Source: Thermoanaerobaculia bacterium
Lineage (GTDB): Bacteria > Acidobacteriota > Thermoanaerobaculia > Multivoradales > Multivoraceae
NCBI GenBank assembly: GCA_963664405.1
Contig: OY761158.1
Coordinates: forward strand, 3,648,001 to 3,712,000
Reading direction: 5' to 3'
Length of the DNA: 64,000 nt
The translations under genes were made by a program, and so were the position numbers. The notes beneath the pieces were generated by a model. That model made no database searches. It worked only from the letters and a program-made list of their open reading frames with translations, and had not been told where the DNA came from. Positions 19,055 to 59,482 of the stretch are shown here, one piece after another. Every line of letters begins with the position of its first letter. The first letter of the stretch is position 1.

Positions 19055-21604
19055 ATGAATCCCAATAGCTCTGCCCGGCGCCGATACCTGCAGCTGGCCT
19101 CGCCGCTCGTGCTCTCGGTCGTGCTCCTGGCCGCCAGCCCACTCACCGCCGCGGGGCCGGCTACCGCGCGCTGGCCCGAAGAGCAGAGATTCTTTTTTGA
19201 TGATGGTCCCGGATGGCTGCTGTCCGATGATCAGCGCTCAGAGCTGATCGCGATGGATGAGGCCGATCGGCTGCCGTGGATGGACCGCTTCTTGGCCCAG
19301 GATCCTGTCGCCGACACCGAAGAGAACGAGCTGGCCACGGGCATCGGTCGGCGACGTCTCTTGATCTGGCAGGAGGGGCTCGTCACTTTTCTCGACGATC
19401 GTGCCAAGGTCCTTTTTCTCCACGGCGCGCCACTCGAGCGTGAGGTGATCGCTTGCGATCAAACCTTCGTGCCACTCGAGATCTGGCGTTACGGGCCCAA
19501 AGAGACGACCCCTGCGCTGATTCTGTACGAACCTCAGCCCGACTGGCCGTATCGCCTCTGGCTGCCCATGGACTCCAAACGCGTGCTCTACGGTCATGAG
19601 ATGGAGTACTGGCTCGAGCAGGTCGCCGAGCTGATCCAGAACGGGAGAGGGCCCCGTTTCGACAAGAGACTGTGTAAGCAGACCAAGGCTGTGGATTTGG
19701 CGACCGGCATCGAGGGCCTGTTTGGCTTCCGCGACAAGCGACCGACCAATACCCAGATTCTCAGCTGGGTCGAGGCGCCGGCGAGCTTGGCGGACTGGGC
19801 TTCGGAAGCAGTCCGTACTCCGCTCCCGGAGGGCCCCGGCTCTTTGGTCGTGGCAGCCCCAGAGGTGTACTTCCCAAAGAAGGAAGGTCAGCGTATGGTC
19901 GCTCGGATCCTTCTTCGCGTACCGGAGGAATCGGGCCTCGAGGTGCACGAGGACAACGAAAAGACCGAGCTGCGAATCAAGATCGATGGCATCGTCGAGC
20001 GAGAAGGCGAGCTCTTCGAGAACTTTCACATCCGCTTCCAGGTTCCGGTCGAGGACCGGCCTAGAGAGCTCGCTCTGTTGATGGACCGGCTGCTTCGGCC
20101 CGAGGACGAGTTTCTCATCCGTCTTCGTATTCGCGACGAGATCGGCGAGGCCGAGATTCACCGGGCGGTGGGCTTTCGGGTTCCAAGTGAAGCGCAGGCG
20201 GAGGAGGATCTGCCGAGCGACGTTGTCGTCGCCCACGGAGTGGACGTGGAGCCGGAGAGAGTTCCTGGCGTCGACAGTTTGGTGATCATTCCTCCCGAGA
20301 CCGATGTCGTTCTGGGTCTGTGGAGAGTGGAGACTCTGATCTCCGGGGAGAGCATTCAGAAGGTCATCTTCCTGCTCGACGGTAAGCCCCAGATGACTCG
20401 CGGCAAGCCACCGTTTCAGGCTGAGCTACGTCTCGGCAAGTATCCGACCGAGCACGTGGTCAGAGCCGAAGGCTATGACTCCGAAGGTGGGCTTATCGCC
20501 TCCGACGAGGTCGTACTCAACCAGCAGCGGGGCCAACTAGAGGTCGAGATCCTGGAACCGCGAAAGGGCGCTGTGCTCAGCGGCACCGTGAATGCGAGAG
20601 CCTCGGTCGTAGTGCCGGAGGAGGCCAATCTGACCCGAGTCGACTTCTTGGTCAATGATGCGGTCGTCGCGACTCTCGTGAAGCCGCCTTGGCAAGTCGA
20701 GATCGAAGTTCCCGAGCTGGCTCAGCGCGCGGACATCAGTTATCTGACGGTAGCGGCCTATCTCGACGATGGCACGCGCGCCGAGGACGTACGCTTCCTC
20801 AGCGCCCCCGAGTATCTCGAGCGGGTCGAGGTTGACCTGGTAGAGCTCTACACCACCGTCGAGGGAGACCGCTCGTTGTCACTCCAGCGAGAAGCCTTCT
20901 CTATCTTCGAAGACGGCCGCCCTCAGGAGATCGCCAAATTCGAGTTGGTCGAGGACTTGCCCATCACCGTGGGCATTACTATCGATACTTCGGGCTCGAT
21001 GATCGAATCGATCTCCGAGGCCAAGACGGCGGCCGTCGACTTCCTCGAGCGCATCATCACTCCCCGAGATCAGTCCTTCGCTGTGAGCTTCGCGAATCAT
21101 CCTCAGCTGTTGATGCATCGCACCTCCGATGTCGGCGCGGTCGAGACCGCGGTGTCGAGCCTCCACGCGGTTGGCAATACAGCGCTCTACGATGCGGTGG
21201 TCACCAGCCTTTACTATTTTCGTGGGGTTCGCGGCCGACGCGCATTGGTTCTCCTCTCTGACGGAGACGACACCAATAGCAACATTCCGTTCAAGGACTC
21301 CCTCGACTACGCGCGCCGCAGCGGGGTCGCGATCTACGCCATCGGGCTCAAGATCGGTGTTACCTCGATCGGCATCCGAGGCAAACTGAATGATCTGGCC
21401 GATGAGACCGGCGGCCGTGCGTACTTCATCTCCAAGGCTTCTGAGCTTCATAGTGTCTACGGTCAGATCGAGCGAGAGCTCCGTAGTCAGTATCTTCTAG
21501 CCTACTCTTCCGACGCGCCAACCGAGGCCGAGGAGTTCCGCACCGTCGAGGTCAAGGTCAAGGGAAAGCTCAAGGCGCGGACCATCAGTGGCTATTATCC
21601 CTAG
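19055..21604 (+). CDS. Exported GWxTD-like / Ig-like / VWA domain protein
   Basis: Signal peptide, DDRAKVLFLHGAP and EIWRY (GWxTD-like), Ig-like PPF/PPW repeats, MIDAS DTSGS, TALYDA, LSDGDD, ELRSQYLLAY. Confidence 0.85.
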   Translation: MNPNSSARRRYLQLASPLVLSVVLLAASPLTAAGPATARWPEEQRFFFDDGPGWLLSDDQRSELIAMDEADRLPWMDRFLAQDPVADTEENELATGIGRRRLLIWQEGLVTFLDDRAKVLFLHGAPLEREVIACDQTFVPLEIWRYGPKETTPALILYEPQPDWPYRLWLPMDSKRVLYGHEMEYWLEQVAELIQNGRGPRFDKRLCKQTKAVDLATGIEGLFGFRDKRPTNTQILSWVEAPASLADWASEAVRTPLPEGPGSLVVAAPEVYFPKKEGQRMVARILLRVPEESGLEVHEDNEKTELRIKIDGIVEREGELFENFHIRFQVPVEDRPRELALLMDRLLRPEDEFLIRLRIRDEIGEAEIHRAVGFRVPSEAQAEEDLPSDVVVAHGVDVEPERVPGVDSLVIIPPETDVVLGLWRVETLISGESIQKVIFLLDGKPQMTRGKPPFQAELRLGKYPTEHVVRAEGYDSEGGLIASDEVVLNQQRGQLEVEILEPRKGAVLSGTVNARASVVVPEEANLTRVDFLVNDAVVATLVKPPWQVEIEVPELAQRADISYLTVAAYLDDGTRAEDVRFLSAPEYLERVEVDLVELYTTVEGDRSLSLQREAFSIFEDGRPQEIAKFELVEDLPITVGITIDTSGSMIESISEAKTAAVDFLERIITPRDQSFAVSFANHPQLLMHRTSDVGAVETAVSSLHAVGNTALYDAVVTSLYYFRGVRGRRALVLLSDGDDTNSNIPFKDSLDYARRSGVAIYAIGLKIGVTSIGIRGKLNDLADETGGRAYFISKASELHSVYGQIERELRSQYLLAYSSDAPTEAEEFRTVEVKVKGKLKARTISGYYP

Positions 21605-22361
21605 CCTCAGAAAACGCGCCTTCGGCCCGTTTTCCGGCCCATCCCCGCCTGAGAACTACTCGCCTGTCCGAATTCTCGGACACGCTCCTAGCCCAAGACT
21701 CCGGCTGATTGGCCCGTTCTGCGGTCCATCTGCTCTGCTTTCGGTCTTGCTCCTACTGAGTGGGCCGTGGGCAAGTGGCGAGGAGTTCCACTTCCGGGGA
21801 CTGGACCGGACCTACAGCCAGTTCGCCGACGAGCTGGCCCCGATCGAGCTGGGAGTGGTCAAAGTGCTTCTGAAGTCTCCGGAGCACTCGATGACCCTCG
21901 AACGCCATCTTGTTCGCCTGGTGCCTGCCGAAGGCGACTCTCATAGGGTGAGCTTGGAGCTCGATCTGCACGGCAGCGGTACCCTCGACGCCCATCTCCA
22001 GGTCGGATCTCTAGCCGGTGATCTCGAGGATGAGCTGGTAGTGCCACCACAGAGCCTCCTGATCGGGGCGAGAGTCGAGATCCATCGCGTGCCCGAGGGG
22101 TTCAGGGTCACTCTCTTGGAAGGCCCCAAAGAGATAGAAGTGCGTATCGAGAGCCGGCTGGCGTCGCGCATCGTTCCTCTTTGCAGGCAGATGGCGCTGG
22201 TCCTCGTCCGCTTCGACTGTGGTGCCCTGGACGAGGCTCTGTCTCGGGTCCTAGTGCCGGTACCTCCGCCGGGGGAGCAGTTTCTGATCCCCCTCGAGGA
22301 GCTCACGGCCGCCGAGGTCTCGCAATTCGAGCACTATCTGCGTCGAGCGGCAGGACTCTAG
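21588..22361 (+). CDS. Hypothetical exported protein carrying an in-frame repeat-B insertion near its N-terminus
   Basis: ORF stays open through repeat B; signal-like SALLSVLLLLSGPWASG; ends at the CTAG of repeat A copy 2. Confidence 0.65.
   Translation: MAIIPSLRKRAFGPFSGPSPPENYSPVRILGHAPSPRLRLIGPFCGPSALLSVLLLLSGPWASGEEFHFRGLDRTYSQFADELAPIELGVVKVLLKSPEHSMTLERHLVRLVPAEGDSHRVSLELDLHGSGTLDAHLQVGSLAGDLEDELVVPPQSLLIGARVEIHRVPEGFRVTLLEGPKEIEVRIESRLASRIVPLCRQMALVLVRFDCGALDEALSRVLVPVPPPGEQFLIPLEELTAAEVSQFEHYLRRAAGL
21601..21691 (+). repeat. Repeat family B, intact copy (91 bp, CTAG...CTAG)
   Basis: Near-identical to 59392-59482 and to the reverse complement of 49421-49499 joined to 47932-47943. Confidence 0.92.
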
Positions 22362-47064: not shown

Positions 47065-47772
47065 GTGCTACGGGCGATCCTCTTTGGTTTCAGTGGTGTG
47101 CTTGTCGATGATCAGCCCCTCCACTTGGGTCTCTTCCGCCGGGTTCTTGCCGAGGACGACATAGAACTATCCGATGCGGAGTATTCAAAGCTCTACCAGA
47201 GTCGTGACGACAAGGACTTTCTCTCCGCGGTACTAAGAGGCAGGGGACAGCGCTTTGACGAGGCGCTGTTGATGCGGCTACTCACCCGCAAGGCGAGCTA
47301 CTTTCGGGAGCAGATCCGGGTTGAGGGCTTTCCTTTCTTTCAAGGAGCTCTCCAATTGGTGAGGAAGGCCGCCGAGGAGTCCTTCACTCTGGGTGTGGTT
47401 TCTCGCGCCCTGCGCGGTGAGATCGAGGCGGCGCTAGAGCAGCCGGCTGTCGGAGGCCTGTTCAAGGTCGTCGTCTCTGCCGAGGATGTGGAGGAGACGA
47501 AGCCGGACCCGGAAGCCTATCGCCGCGCCCTGAGCGATCTGAACAGCGTGCCTCCGCTCCCTTCCAGGCTTTATCACCCGCATGAGGTGCTTGCGGTCGA
47601 AAACAGCGTCTCGGGTCTCGCCGCCGCACGAGCGGCCGGCTTGGTGACGCTCGGCGTATCGCACAGCTCTTCGAGTGAGGGGCTCGCCGGCGCGGATCTG
47701 GTAGTCGGGGGCTTGGGTGAGGTCCGCCTCGACGTCCTGCAGCAACAGCTGGCCGAGGCTAGCCGGAGCTAG
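47065..47772 (+). CDS. HAD-family phosphatase-like protein (motif I aspartates absent)
   Basis: AILFGFSGVLVDD, KPDPEAY, ENS..G..AA..AG. Confidence 0.8.
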   Translation: MLRAILFGFSGVLVDDQPLHLGLFRRVLAEDDIELSDAEYSKLYQSRDDKDFLSAVLRGRGQRFDEALLMRLLTRKASYFREQIRVEGFPFFQGALQLVRKAAEESFTLGVVSRALRGEIEAALEQPAVGGLFKVVVSAEDVEETKPDPEAYRRALSDLNSVPPLPSRLYHPHEVLAVENSVSGLAAARAAGLVTLGVSHSSSSEGLAGADLVVGGLGEVRLDVLQQQLAEASRS

Positions 47773-47935
47773 TGTCCTGTATCAGTAGTTCGTCACACAA
47801 CTCGCTGGCCCTTTTGCGCGCTGCCGTCGTTGCTCCTCCTCGCAATATTGCCCAATATACCTTCGTCGTAGCGCCTTGGCAGCACCCAAAATGACTGCGC
47901 GATTTATGCAACGAACCACTGATACAGGACACTAG
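47769..47935 (+). repeat. Repeat family A copy 4
   Basis: CTAGTGTCCTGTATCAGT ... ACTGATACAGGACACTAG arms; core CCTCGCAATATTGCCCAATATACCTTCGTC; the right CTAG is shared with the split repeat B. Confidence 0.88.
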
Positions 47936-47962
47936 GAGCGTGTATCTGGACTCCAATGTCAA

Positions 47963-48290
47963 CAGGGGTGGGTCGGTCTTCTTGTTTTTGATAGAGGTTT
48001 CCTTGGTGTGTAATCACAGGCAGTATGGAGGTCGATGGTGAGTCAAGACAGCAGACGTATCTCCGGCCTGTAGTGGGCGATTATTAGCGCCGGGCCATGA
48101 TGAAGAAATGCGCGTGAGGGAGCCGAATCGTCCGAAAGGGCCTCGAAGGCCAACGCTCCTATCGGCTTTTCCCCCCACGCCAGTCTGACTGGAAACCATC
48201 AGAATTCTCTACTCGCGCTGTCGGAGTGTTTGTGAGTGTTCAATTTGAAGTCTTCGGGTGCGTTGGGGTCCAGAGATCGAGGCCAAGGGC
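47963..48290 (-). ncRNA. Putative bridge RNA / seekRNA of the IS1111-type element (ends approximate)
   Basis: Matches to target flanks (48202-48209, 48153-48161) and to IS ends (48097-48104, 48058-48062); position as in IS1111 elements. Confidence 0.7.
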
Positions 48291-49331
48291 TCAGGCCGTG
48301 ACTTGCCGTGGAGGCTGCAGCTGGAAGGAGGTCTCGTGGGTCCAGACCGCCCAGACAACGCGTGCGAGCTTGTTGGCGAGGGCAACGGCGGCCCGGTTCC
48401 GTCCCCGCGAGCTCTCGACTCTGAGGGCCCACTGTTCGAGCCTACCGGCGGGTCCCTTTCTCCTCGCCCAGCTGAGCACCGACCTGGCGCCATGAATGAG
48501 GAGAGTTCGTAAGTACGCGTCCCCGCGTTTGCTGATCCTGCCGAGCCACCGCCGAGCGCCACTGGAGTGTTCCCTGGGAGTCAGTCCGAGATAGCTGGCG
48601 AGATGCCGGCCGCTTTTGAAGCGGCGAATGTCTCCGATCCAAGCGACCATGGCTGTGGCCGTGAGTACGCCTACGCCCTTGATCGTCAGGAGTCGCTTCA
48701 CGGCCTCGTCCTGGCGCGCGAGGGCTTGGATCTGTGCCTCGAGCTCTTGGATCTTCGTGGTCAGCTCGTCGATGTGGTCACAGATGCTTTCGAAAAAGGG
48801 TCGCAAGACGAGCGGGATCTCGGTATCCGGATCCGCGAGCCAGACGCGGACGCGCGGCAGGACCTGGGCGCGTCCCTGGGGCAGAAAGAGCCCGAGCTCT
48901 CGTAGGTGCCCGCGCAGAGCATTGATGTGGGCGGTGCGATCGTCCATGAACGACGAACGGATGCGATGGAGCGTGGTCATCGTCTGCTGCTCGAGCGATT
49001 TGACCGGTACGGGTAGGATGTCCTCGTTTCGATGCGCCTCGAGCATGCCCGTGGTATCCGTTCGATCCGATTTATTGCGCAACACATAGCGCCGGGTGAA
49101 ATGCGGTGGCAGCAGGATCACCTCGTGGCCGAGACTCTGAATACGCCGGCCCCAGTAGTGCGCCGAACCGCAGGCTTCCATGAGGACGGTCGCGGGCTTG
49201 ATCTGCGCGAAGAACCTGAGGAATTTCGCCCTTCGCACGCGCTGCCTCTCGGCGACCTTACCCGGCTCGTAAGACACCGCGATCTCGAAGACATCCTTGG
49301 CGATATCGACTGCGATACGTGTACTCTTCAT
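48291..49331 (-). CDS. IS110-family DEDD recombinase/transposase
   Basis: AVDIAK, MEACG, NKSDRTD (DEDD), GVG..TA, YLGLTP..HSSG, ISKRGD.YLR.LL..GA, A.VALANKLAR. Confidence 0.95.
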   Translation of the reverse strand: MKSTRIAVDIAKDVFEIAVSYEPGKVAERQRVRRAKFLRFFAQIKPATVLMEACGSAHYWGRRIQSLGHEVILLPPHFTRRYVLRNKSDRTDTTGMLEAHRNEDILPVPVKSLEQQTMTTLHRIRSSFMDDRTAHINALRGHLRELGLFLPQGRAQVLPRVRVWLADPDTEIPLVLRPFFESICDHIDELTTKIQELEAQIQALARQDEAVKRLLTIKGVGVLTATAMVAWIGDIRRFKSGRHLASYLGLTPREHSSGARRWLGRISKRGDAYLRTLLIHGARSVLSWARRKGPAGRLEQWALRVESSRGRNRAAVALANKLARVVWAVWTHETSFQLQPPRQVTA

Positions 49332-49420
49332 CGTGGACTCCCTTTCTACGATCAACGTTTGCGACTTAGGTGACCCCTGGCACATAGATGCCGAAGTCAC
49401 CGGGGAGTCCATTTCATCAT

Positions 49421-49499
49421 CCGAGAATTCGGACAGGCGAGTAGTTCTTAGGCGGGGATGGGCCGGAGAACGGGCCGAAGGCGCGTTTTCTGGGGCTAG
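49421..49499 (-). repeat. Repeat family B, larger part of the IS-interrupted copy (remaining 12 bp at 47932-47943)
   Basis: Reverse complement matches the first 79 bp of 21601-21691. Confidence 0.92.
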
Positions 49500-49564
49500 G
49501 CTCAGACGAGGGTGGTGATCGCCCTCGTTCTCGAGGATCCCGGTGATACGATCGCCGATCCCTG

Positions 49565-50161
49565 ATGACGGAAGCGGGAGCCAGAGAACCGGCCAGCGGC
49601 CAGATTGAAGTGATCAGTGGTGGAATGTTCTCGGGCAAGAGCGAGGAGCTGCTTCGTCGCCTCCGACGAGCGGTGATCGCGCGGCAGAAGGTTCAGGCCT
49701 TCAAGCCAGCGGCCGACACTCGGCACGCCCCCCAGCGACTGATTACGCGTGACAATCGCGAAGTCTCCGCCATGTCGGTGGGTGACAGCACCGAGCTTGC
49801 GCGAGTTCTCGCGCCCGACGTTCAAGTGATAGGAATCGACGAGCCGCAGTTTTTCGACGAGGGGCTTATAACCCTCTCGTCCACCCTGGCCGATCAGGGC
49901 GTGAGGGTGATCATCGCTGGACTCGATCAGGACTTCCTGCGTCGACCCTTCGGACCGATGCCTGGCCTCTTGGCACTGGCCGAGTTCGTCGACAAGATGC
50001 ACGCGATCTGCGTGGTTTGTGGATCTCGTGCTCACTTTACCCAGCGCATTGCGGGCGGAGCCGAGCTGGTGCAGGTTGGCGACGACGACTACTACGAGGC
50101 TCGCTGCCGTACCTGCTATGAGCTTGGTCCGCGGCCGAAGGCGGCTAGCCTGCCGAGATGA
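49565..50161 (+). CDS. tdk: Thymidine kinase
   Basis: GGMFSGKSEEL, IGIDEPQF, AGLDQDF, CVVCG, YEARCRTC. Confidence 0.95.
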   Translation: MTEAGAREPASGQIEVISGGMFSGKSEELLRRLRRAVIARQKVQAFKPAADTRHAPQRLITRDNREVSAMSVGDSTELARVLAPDVQVIGIDEPQFFDEGLITLSSTLADQGVRVIIAGLDQDFLRRPFGPMPGLLALAEFVDKMHAICVVCGSRAHFTQRIAGGAELVQVGDDDYYEARCRTCYELGPRPKAASLPR

Positions 50162-59391: not shown

Positions 59392-59482
59392 CTAGCCCCG
59401 GAAAACGGGCCTGCGGCCCGTTCTCCGGCCCATCCCCCCCTAAGAACTACTCGCCTGTCCGAATTCTCGGACACGCTCCTAG
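59392..59482 (+). repeat. Repeat family B, intact copy (91 bp)
   Basis: CTAGCCCCGGAAAACG...TGTCCGAATTCTCGGACACGCTCCTAG. Confidence 0.92.

Follow-up and report, generated by a model that had tools for sequence, protein, structure and literature searches.

An IS1111-group insertion sequence of a Thermoanaerobaculia bacterium that is probably guided by its own RNA to a terminal module of dispersed repeats

Introduction

RNA-guided recombinases of the IS110/IS1111 family of insertion sequences (IS) are in development as programmable DNA-insertion tools, and most of what is known of their structure comes from the IS110 group, that is, from IS621. As described by Durrant et al. (2024, PMC11208160), IS621 has one RNA, the bridge RNA, with a target loop and a donor loop whose arms read opposite strands of the two halves, and bridge RNAs are predicted in the right end of 93.0% of IS1111 elements. 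Elements of the IS1111 group, as characterised by Siddiquee et al. (2024, PMC11187229), are recognised by subterminal inverted repeats of ~7-17 bp with short extensions and by a transposase of 330-350 amino acids with the motif GL-P----S(t)G; in their guides, called seekRNAs, the complement of the top strand of the target lies 5' of the complement of the bottom strand. In Pseudomonas putida, ISPpu9 and ISPpu10 land in dispersed repetitive extragenic palindromes (REPs) and form circle intermediates, with a junction promoter described for ISPpu10 (Pares-Guillen et al. 2025, PMC12288879). Here we describe ISA, our name for a whole insertion sequence in a 64,000-nucleotide stretch of the genome of a Thermoanaerobaculia bacterium of the phylum Acidobacteriota (assembly GCA_963664405.1, contig OY761158.1, positions 3,648,001 to 3,712,000; hereafter the window), and argue from sequence comparison that it is an IS1111-group element that probably chooses its insertion site via its own RNA, with a target loop and a candidate donor loop.

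ISA is like ISEc11, ISPa11, ISKpn4 and ISPst6, as these are described in PMC11187229, in having a DEDD transposase of ~340 amino acids with GL-P----S(t)G and subterminal repeats with short extensions. With the IS1111 seekRNA elements of the same report it shares a long 3' non-coding region, the order of the arms in the RNA, and insertion that is specific for site and orientation and leaves no duplication; at ~165 nt, its RNA falls within the 145-170 nt range given there for the 'long seekRNA'. It differs from the four named elements in its target, in its hosts and in having target matches that abut or overlap by 0-2 nt, and in its family the arms that match the IS ends also covary with them; these arms lie in the second half of the RNA, a part to which that account assigns no definite role. 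The likeness to IS621 (PMC11208160) extends from the one RNA with its two loops and strand-reading arms to the use of a host repeat as target (a REP in IS621) and to transposases that are detectable sequence relatives; unlike in IS621, the RNA lies 3' and not 5' of the gene, the strand-specific order of the arms is reversed and the subterminal repeats are long. The use of dispersed extragenic repeats as landing sites is also shared with ISPpu9 and ISPpu10, which in contrast belong to the IS110 group, have no subterminal repeats, carry their RNA upstream and take the REP palindrome as a whole (PMC12288879), whereas the target of ISA is a module of ~23 nt found in two repeat families. The mechanism is that published in 2024 for IS110/IS1111 (bridge RNA, PMC11208160; seekRNA, PMC11187229), and is not new; nor is the choice of dispersed host repeats as landing sites, for which other members of the family are known (IS621, ISPpu9/10; PMC12288879).

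Results

The insertion sequence and its insertion site

ISA is 1477 bp long and lies on the minus strand, as delimited by comparing empty with occupied sites in a 91-bp dispersed repeat, repeat B. Its parts, the interrupted target and the empty targets of the window are the following.

47944-49420, minus strand: ISA, the whole insertion sequence (empty/occupied comparison; three genome copies)
48291-49331, minus strand: transposase gene, 346 amino acids (Pfam, NCBIfam and PDB sequence matches)
49404-49420, minus strand: left end of ISA, with a 9-nt extension ATGATGAAA (49412-49420, minus-strand reading) and the subterminal inverted repeat TGGACTCC (49404-49411)
47944-47962, minus strand: right end of ISA, with the inverted repeat GGAGTCCA (47947-47954), a 3-nt extension GAT (47944-47946) and a -35-like TTGACA (47957-47962)
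49411-49416, minus strand: -10-like TGAAAT, 4 nt inside the left end
47932-47943, no strand assigned: right half of the interrupted target (plus-strand reading CTAGGAGCGTGT), formed by the final 12 nt of the repeat B unit
49421-49499, no strand assigned: left half of the interrupted target with the other 79 nt of the repeat B unit (sequence reading)
21601-21691, plus strand: uninterrupted repeat B, an empty target in which the cut would fall after 21679
59392-59482, plus strand: uninterrupted repeat B, an empty target (sequence reading)

On the plus strand, CTAGGAGCGTGT at 47932-47943 is followed by the 1477-bp insert and then by CCGAGAATTCGG, and comparison with uninterrupted copies of repeat B puts the insertion point at TCTCGG^ACACGC. 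A single A common to both sides leaves the boundary ambiguous by one base, and 47943-49419 is an equally possible span. This span, its two flanks and the one shared base had been read in the same way in an initial annotation of the sequence, as had the two empty targets of the window, both of which read ...TCCGAATTCTCGGACACGCTCCTAG. That annotation also held that deleting ISA restores an exact copy of repeat B; what is restored does have all 91 bp of a family member, yet it is no exact copy, as it agrees with the two copies of the window at 88/91 and 87/91 positions and with the best copy in the genome at 89/91, with 0 identical copies. The subterminal inverted repeats TGGACTCC/GGAGTCCA are 8 bp long in ISA (9-14 bp in homologues); the left extension measures 9 nt and the right one 3 nt, and the layout of the left end recurs in 61 homologous elements. 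The transposase gene is followed by 347 nt of non-coding sequence, against 89 nt upstream of it.

The host genome, a single 6.78-Mb contig, holds three copies of ISA at 100, 100 and 99.66% identity, with all frames open; because the three are nearly identical, ISA has presumably moved recently. A second lineage, ISB, has a transposase gene ~73% identical to that of ISA, with 84-85% identity in the RNA region of the 3' non-coding part, and is represented by two full copies, one truncated copy and one fragment. Its ends are identical to those of ISA, its insertion site is the same and its guide arms are near-identical, and the two lineages may mobilise each other. At loci L036 (G000:C1:6025400-6028500) and L033, a full and a 5'-truncated ISB copy sit in adjoining repeat B units. 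The third lineage, ISC, is a single copy (L035, G000:C1:590822-594838) with 54% amino acid identity; the 200 nt upstream of its gene showed no left-end inverted repeat, and the copy may be truncated.

Insertion is specific for both site and orientation. All 6/6 junction pairs of the ISA and ISB lineages in the genome share a single site and orientation, TCTCGG^ACACGCTCCTAG, and each junction string is found 6 times, with constant orientation relative to the target; none lies at an unrelated site, in keeping with the specificity proposed in the initial annotation. The 17-nt core of the empty target, CTCGGACACGCTCCTAG, has 61 copies in the genome, 35 of which take the repeat B form (TTCTCGG...) and 26 a TACTCGG... 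form. The latter belong mostly to a second repeat family (for example G000:C1 1965003-1965092 and 2160057-2160146) that has only its last ~23 nt in common with repeat B and is otherwise unrelated to it; two of the three ISA copies sit in this second family. Since junctions and empty targets thus end two unrelated repeat families, the recognised sequence is, on this reading, the ~23-nt terminal module CGAAT(T/A)CTCGGACACGCTCCTAG, and not repeat B as a whole. The view of ISA as an RNA-guided IS1111 element aimed at a dispersed repeat fits all the comparative tests run below, with this correction to its target: a module of two families in place of one repeat.

An intact member of the IS1111 group

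The transposase gene, with a GGGAG 7 nt upstream of its ATG, encodes an N-terminal DEDD_Tnp_IS110 domain (PF01548, E 6.4e-11) and a C-terminal Transposase_20 domain (PF02371, IS116/IS110/IS902; E 2.5e-27), both above the gathering score, and this pairing of a DEDD/RuvC-like domain with PF02371 is that of the IS110 family. The protein scores 316.8 bits against NCBIfam NF033542, 'IS110 family RNA-guided transposase' (cut-off 140), and matches the PDB sequences of the IS621 and ISCro4 transposases, IS621 with E 1.5e-10 over residues 182-332; its N-terminal half has no PDB sequence match at E 0.001. Within the family, ISA has the full set of IS1111 traits: subterminal repeats, a longer non-coding region on the 3' side, the motif (as GLTPREHSSG) in a protein of 346 residues, and site- and orientation-specific insertion (6/6 junction pairs) without target duplication, the empty sites showing just one shared A. 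Its sequence marks ISA as an IS1111-group insertion sequence that is intact and has been active recently.

The two ends also carry what would be the halves of a promoter. TTGACA lies 13 nt from the tip of ISA at the right end, and TTGAC stands ahead of the right repeat in many homologues; when the ends are joined in silico, and only then, TTGACA and TGAAAT are brought together around a 17-nt spacer, a junction promoter by consensus match only. Inside the linear element we found no sigma-70-like promoter and 0 terminator-like sites, the single promoter-like site falling outside it. A junction promoter in the circular intermediate is the arrangement described for the IS110/IS1111 family (PMC12288879).

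A conserved RNA downstream of the transposase gene

The 3' non-coding region contains a conserved RNA, whose extent and principal helices are as follows.

48041-48204, minus strand: conserved structured RNA (bridge RNA or long seekRNA), ~165 nt (covariance model R1, 131 bits)
48171-48179 with 48113-48121, minus strand: helix P1, closing loop 1 (RNAalifold, pair counts)
48162-48166 with 48122-48127, minus strand: helix P2, closing loop 1 (RNAalifold, pair counts)
48139-48151, minus strand: hairpin P3 (GGCC-UUCGA-GGCC), which caps loop 1 (RNAalifold, pair counts)
48065-48096, minus strand: hairpin P5, which precedes the right-end guide

Homologues were drawn from ISC in the host genome, from related genomes (14/41 with a match), from genome contigs (4 loci, found with a one-protein query) and from metagenomes, where 80 loci with 47-62% identity were found by means of a 7-protein alignment; they come from environmental genomes and metagenomes. 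The covariance model R1, made from 10 sequences, has 7 matches in the host genome, all of them within ISA, ISB or ISC, and matches 5/151 sampled genomes of the phylum. Among sources with a homologous transposase it matches 88/93 (84 at full length), always 3' of the gene and on the same strand, and in the five sources without a match less than 115 nt of contig lies beyond the gene.

For the loop region we worked with a model-based alignment, A3, as a MAFFT alignment, A1, mis-registered it. On 82 unique sequences RNAalifold predicts, in order, a small hairpin (P0), the long P1 helix, the inner P2 helix and an internal loop (loop 1) capped by P3, followed in the second part by loop 2 around a two-part hairpin, P5, and by a short closing helix. 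These helices are conserved and covary: in 87 distinct sequences 91.9% of the cells are paired, against 83.4% after column shuffles and 31-40.5% when one side is slid by 1-3 columns, and both sides change in 24/38 pairs, including 8/8 in P1 and 3/6 in P2. P2 and P3 are not part of R1.

One metagenome element, L075, has, downstream of its full RNA, a second, partial target-loop module with different arms (L075:1482-1549, 24.2 bits over model positions 24-90); it may be a spare or alternative guide.

Loop 1 and the target

Loop 1, between P2 and P3, holds an arm for each half of the target; a further match, proposed in the initial annotation, lies elsewhere.

48153-48161, minus strand: right-target guide, RNA UAGGAGCGU, the 5' arm of loop 1, complementary to the top strand of ACGCTCCTA in the right flank
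48130-48137, minus strand: probable left-target guide, RNA UUUCGGAC, the 3' arm of loop 1, of the same sense as TCTCGG^AC across the cut
48202-48209, minus strand: GAATTCTC, a match to the left flank that we judge to be chance (ISB comparison, shuffles, family test)

In ISB the same two places of loop 1 are taken by UAGGAGCGU plus one base and by a perfect 9-mer, UUCUCGGAC. We asked how well each arm follows its own DNA across the family, taking the mean longest match of an arm to the DNA of its own element, comparing it with the match to the DNA of every other element, and counting how many of 10000 permutations reached the cognate mean. Subterminal repeats could be placed in 61 elements, from which L065 and L085 (whose left-end match was not a true end) and elements short of flank were dropped. 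In 47 elements the 5' arm matches its own right flank at a mean of 6.68, against 4.03 for non-cognate flanks, and the 3' arm its own left flank at 3.98 against 3.11; in both cases 0/10000 permutations are as high. The distance from the cut to the paired block of the 5' arm varies by a few nt among relatives, and in the homologue family the two target matches lie side by side or share just 0-2 nt. The RNA of ISA thus has what is expected of a seekRNA or bridge RNA, a conserved structure with arms to both target strands and, as in IS1111, the top-strand complement first.

The initial annotation had named four short guide matches, all of which are present where it placed them, with the target matches ahead of the donor matches on the minus-strand RNA. 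Three of them hold, those to ACGCTCCTA, to ATGATGAA and to TATCT, and one fails: GAATTCTC, at 48202-48209, cast as the left-target guide, which would then lie in a loop apart from that for ACGCTCCTA. An 8-nt match to the left flank does exist there, and one as long arises in just 80/2000 mononucleotide shuffles of the non-coding region (minus its first 30 nt), a borderline figure beside the 10/2000 in which the length of the right-flank 9-mer is reached. However, GAATTCTC lies 5' of the conserved RNA and outside its covariance model, the sequence at that place in ISB is unrelated despite the same ends and target, and across 52 elements the 18 nt found there do not fit the left flank of their own element better than those of other elements (4.10 vs 4.18; 7781/10000 permutations as high), while a better-placed and conserved alternative is present in loop 1. 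A guide role for it is thus very improbable; we take the match to have arisen by chance, favoured by the GAATTC palindrome that the target contains. The role of left-target guide falls most likely to RNA UUUCGGAC, which shares loop 1 with the right-target guide.

Could the target be read by the protein alone, with the 3' region conserved for mRNA stability, as a terminator or as an antisense regulator? Judged by sequence alone, the conservation of the IS ends and of the target core would be compatible with recognition by a protein. What speaks against it is that the loop arms change with the flanks on one and the same scaffold: where ISA has UAGGAGCGU for ACGCTCCTA, the homologue L001 has CAACUGCGU for a right flank ACGCAGTTG, and ISC has its own arm CGAAAGGC for its own right flank ACGCCTTTC. 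In a 38%-identical family in G010, G021 and G022, the arm again changes along with a REP-like target. Considering also that ISA has nothing like a terminator, and that the family is annotated as RNA-guided and is experimentally so in relatives, we give recognition by protein alone almost no credence.

The 38%-identical relative (loci L008, L020, L028 and L034 in G010, and loci in G021 and G022) has more than 20 copies in one related genome; 27 matches to its transposase were found there, partial ones counted, and the target is a GC-rich hairpin repeat.

Loop 2 and the IS ends

The second half of the RNA holds two arms that match the ends of the element.

48097-48104, minus strand: candidate left-end guide, RNA UUCAUCAU, the 5' arm of loop 2, complementary to ATGATGAA at the IS left end
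48057-48062, minus strand: candidate right-end guide, RNA AGAUAC, the 3' arm of loop 2 after P5, of the same sense as CCAGAT at the right end and the A(C) that follows it

As the arms of loop 1 do with the flanks, both arms covary with the ends, the left-end arm weakly. The 3' arm matches its own right end at a mean of 6.55 against 5.76 for non-cognate ends (0/10000 permutations as high; 47 elements), and the 5' arm its own left end at 5.43 against 4.88 (6/10000; 53 elements). The 3-nt extension of the right end agrees with the 3' arm in 59/59 elements, in three sequence classes: GAT with AGAUAC in 47, TAC with AUAC(A/C)C in 7 and TAT with AUAUAC in 5. By length alone, the 8-mer to the left end is, like the 9-mer to the right flank, unlikely to be due to chance, a match as long occurring in 46/2000 shuffles; the longest match to the 12-nt right end, 7 nt, is reached in 354/2000, the 5-mer TATCT not being expected to stand out.

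The left-end guide has a second partner within the RNA. Its 3' part (CAUCA) pairs with UGAUG in the 5' segment of the RNA, within UGAUGG at 48196-48201 (helix 48196-48201/48098-48102). This helix of 5-7 bp is itself cognate (5.38 vs 4.16, 0/10000 permutations, 69 unique pairs) and has many compensatory variants, among them UGACGG/CCGUCA, AAAUGG/CCAUUU and CAUGG/CCAUG. A guide buried in a stem had been named as a point that would tell against the initial annotation, and the left-end guide is partly so buried, yet it covaries with the left end; this covariation appears to lie mainly in the unpaired 5' part of the arm. We rejected the idea that the 5' segment is a direct mimic that tracks the left end, as it gives no cognate signal (4.55 vs 4.47; 2438/10000). 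The helix may act as an anti-guide or toehold, or it may do no more than close a three-way junction. Perhaps UGAUGG is a built-in anti-guide that masks the conserved part of the left-end guide and leaves 3-4 variable nt free as a toehold, so that the donor would be captured by strand displacement; this is a conjecture, to which we allow a small chance.

These observations also bear on a simpler scheme, in which loop 1 would be the only guide, as in a 'short seekRNA', the ends would be read by the transposase via the subterminal repeats, and the second half of the RNA, including the matches to ATGATGAA and TATCT, would be structural or regulatory. An 82-nt seekRNA moved a mini-ISEc11 more efficiently than the long form did, and its authors describe the role of the long RNA as unknown (PMC11187229); the helix with the 5' segment, which takes up part of the left-end arm, fits this scheme too, as do left-end extensions that vary little and leave a small difference between cognate and non-cognate ends. 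Set against it are the complete agreement of right-end extension and 3' arm across the three classes, the tracking of its own left end by the left-end arm, with the variation in the unpaired part, and the donor-complementary loops that Durrant et al. report for the IS1111 elements they inspected (PMC11208160). We consider loop 1 as sole guide unlikely, and prefer the reading with both a target and a donor loop.

Sequencing depth and the neighbouring repeat

In four sequencing runs from two studies, one contig each spans ISA with both junctions, with an interior depth of ~1.4-4.7x that of the unique flanks, which fits three copies of ISA; as these runs may come from the source organism, they are not independent support. 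Among the sequencing runs recorded as RNA, none was found to contain this stretch. The same contigs show no joint that skips ISA and no circle joint, rare forms being beyond what contigs can show. Just past the right flank of ISA, 47802-47905 has a contig depth of ~85-400 against 5-8 in the adjoining unique sequence, which suggests another high-copy repeat.

Discussion

In the mechanism that we propose for ISA, the 347-nt region 3' of the transposase gene would encode a structured RNA of ~165 nt with two internal loops. In loop 1, the UAGGAGCGU arm would pair with the top strand of the right half of the target and the UUUCGGAC arm with the bottom strand of the left half; in loop 2, the UUCAUCAU arm would pair with the top strand of the IS left end, the AGAUAC arm having the sense of the right end. 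A complex of transposase and RNA would hold the circular IS together with the target and recombine them at TCTCGG^ACACGCTCCTAG, with no duplication and in one orientation. In the circle, the -35 of the right end and the -10 of the left end would stand 17 nt apart and could drive one transcript with both the transposase and the RNA. By analogy with the described relatives, we infer that the RNA is made, processed and bound by the transposase, that it pairs with DNA and that a circle is the intermediate.

Several points weigh against this mechanism and should be read together. Folded as a single sequence, the 347-nt non-coding region of ISA is no better than its shuffles (z -0.56; 28/100 as good), and an Rfam scan of 47700-49700 with E up to 10 gave 4 weak matches, all far below the gathering score and none of them relevant; because of these two results, the case for a structured RNA relies on homologues. 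There, A3 was fitted to the R1 helices P0, P1 and P5, whose pair counts lean to the structure as a result, and the permutation tests of the arms ignore relatedness and so overstate independence. In the same vein, the three right-end extension classes may be only three clades. The guides of ISA itself are partly short, with 6 contiguous nt (7/8 in all) for the left-target guide and 5-6 nt for the right-end guide, and the left-end guide is partly sequestered in the covarying helix with the 5' segment. A matrix of complementarity by position between the 5' arm of loop 1 and the right junction was blurred by varying spacing, and we kept it out of the evidence. Moreover, the 82-nt short seekRNA of ISEc11, with target matches only, sufficed for transposition (PMC11187229), so that loop 2 may be unneeded.

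Finally among these points, the crossover itself allows two readings. The last bases of the two 3' arms are x-C-G; at this place the IS left end has x-T-G and the empty target of the window has C. Because of this mismatch, the crossover could be the single shared A, or else a 2-nt core that differs between donor (AT) and target (AC). The core of IS621 is CT; that of ISA shows a shared base of 1 nt only.

What could the long RNA be for? If the anti-guide conjecture were true, the helix with the 5' segment would be a gate on donor binding or excision that is specific to the long RNA of this IS1111 subgroup, and would give the 'long seekRNA' a role. Whatever the answer, as a natural example from the less-studied IS1111 group ISA is unusually complete: a single genome shows the two IS ends, the empty target, the guide arms, a pair of diverged lineages on one target and ~61 free sites. 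The 84 full-length homologous RNAs, taken with their flanks, amount to a comparative map of the programmable positions of the RNA in an IS1111 subgroup. For the host, the terminal module shared by both repeat families would explain why the IS copies sit only in repeats, and the genome offers the element ~61 free landing sites that lie outside genes.

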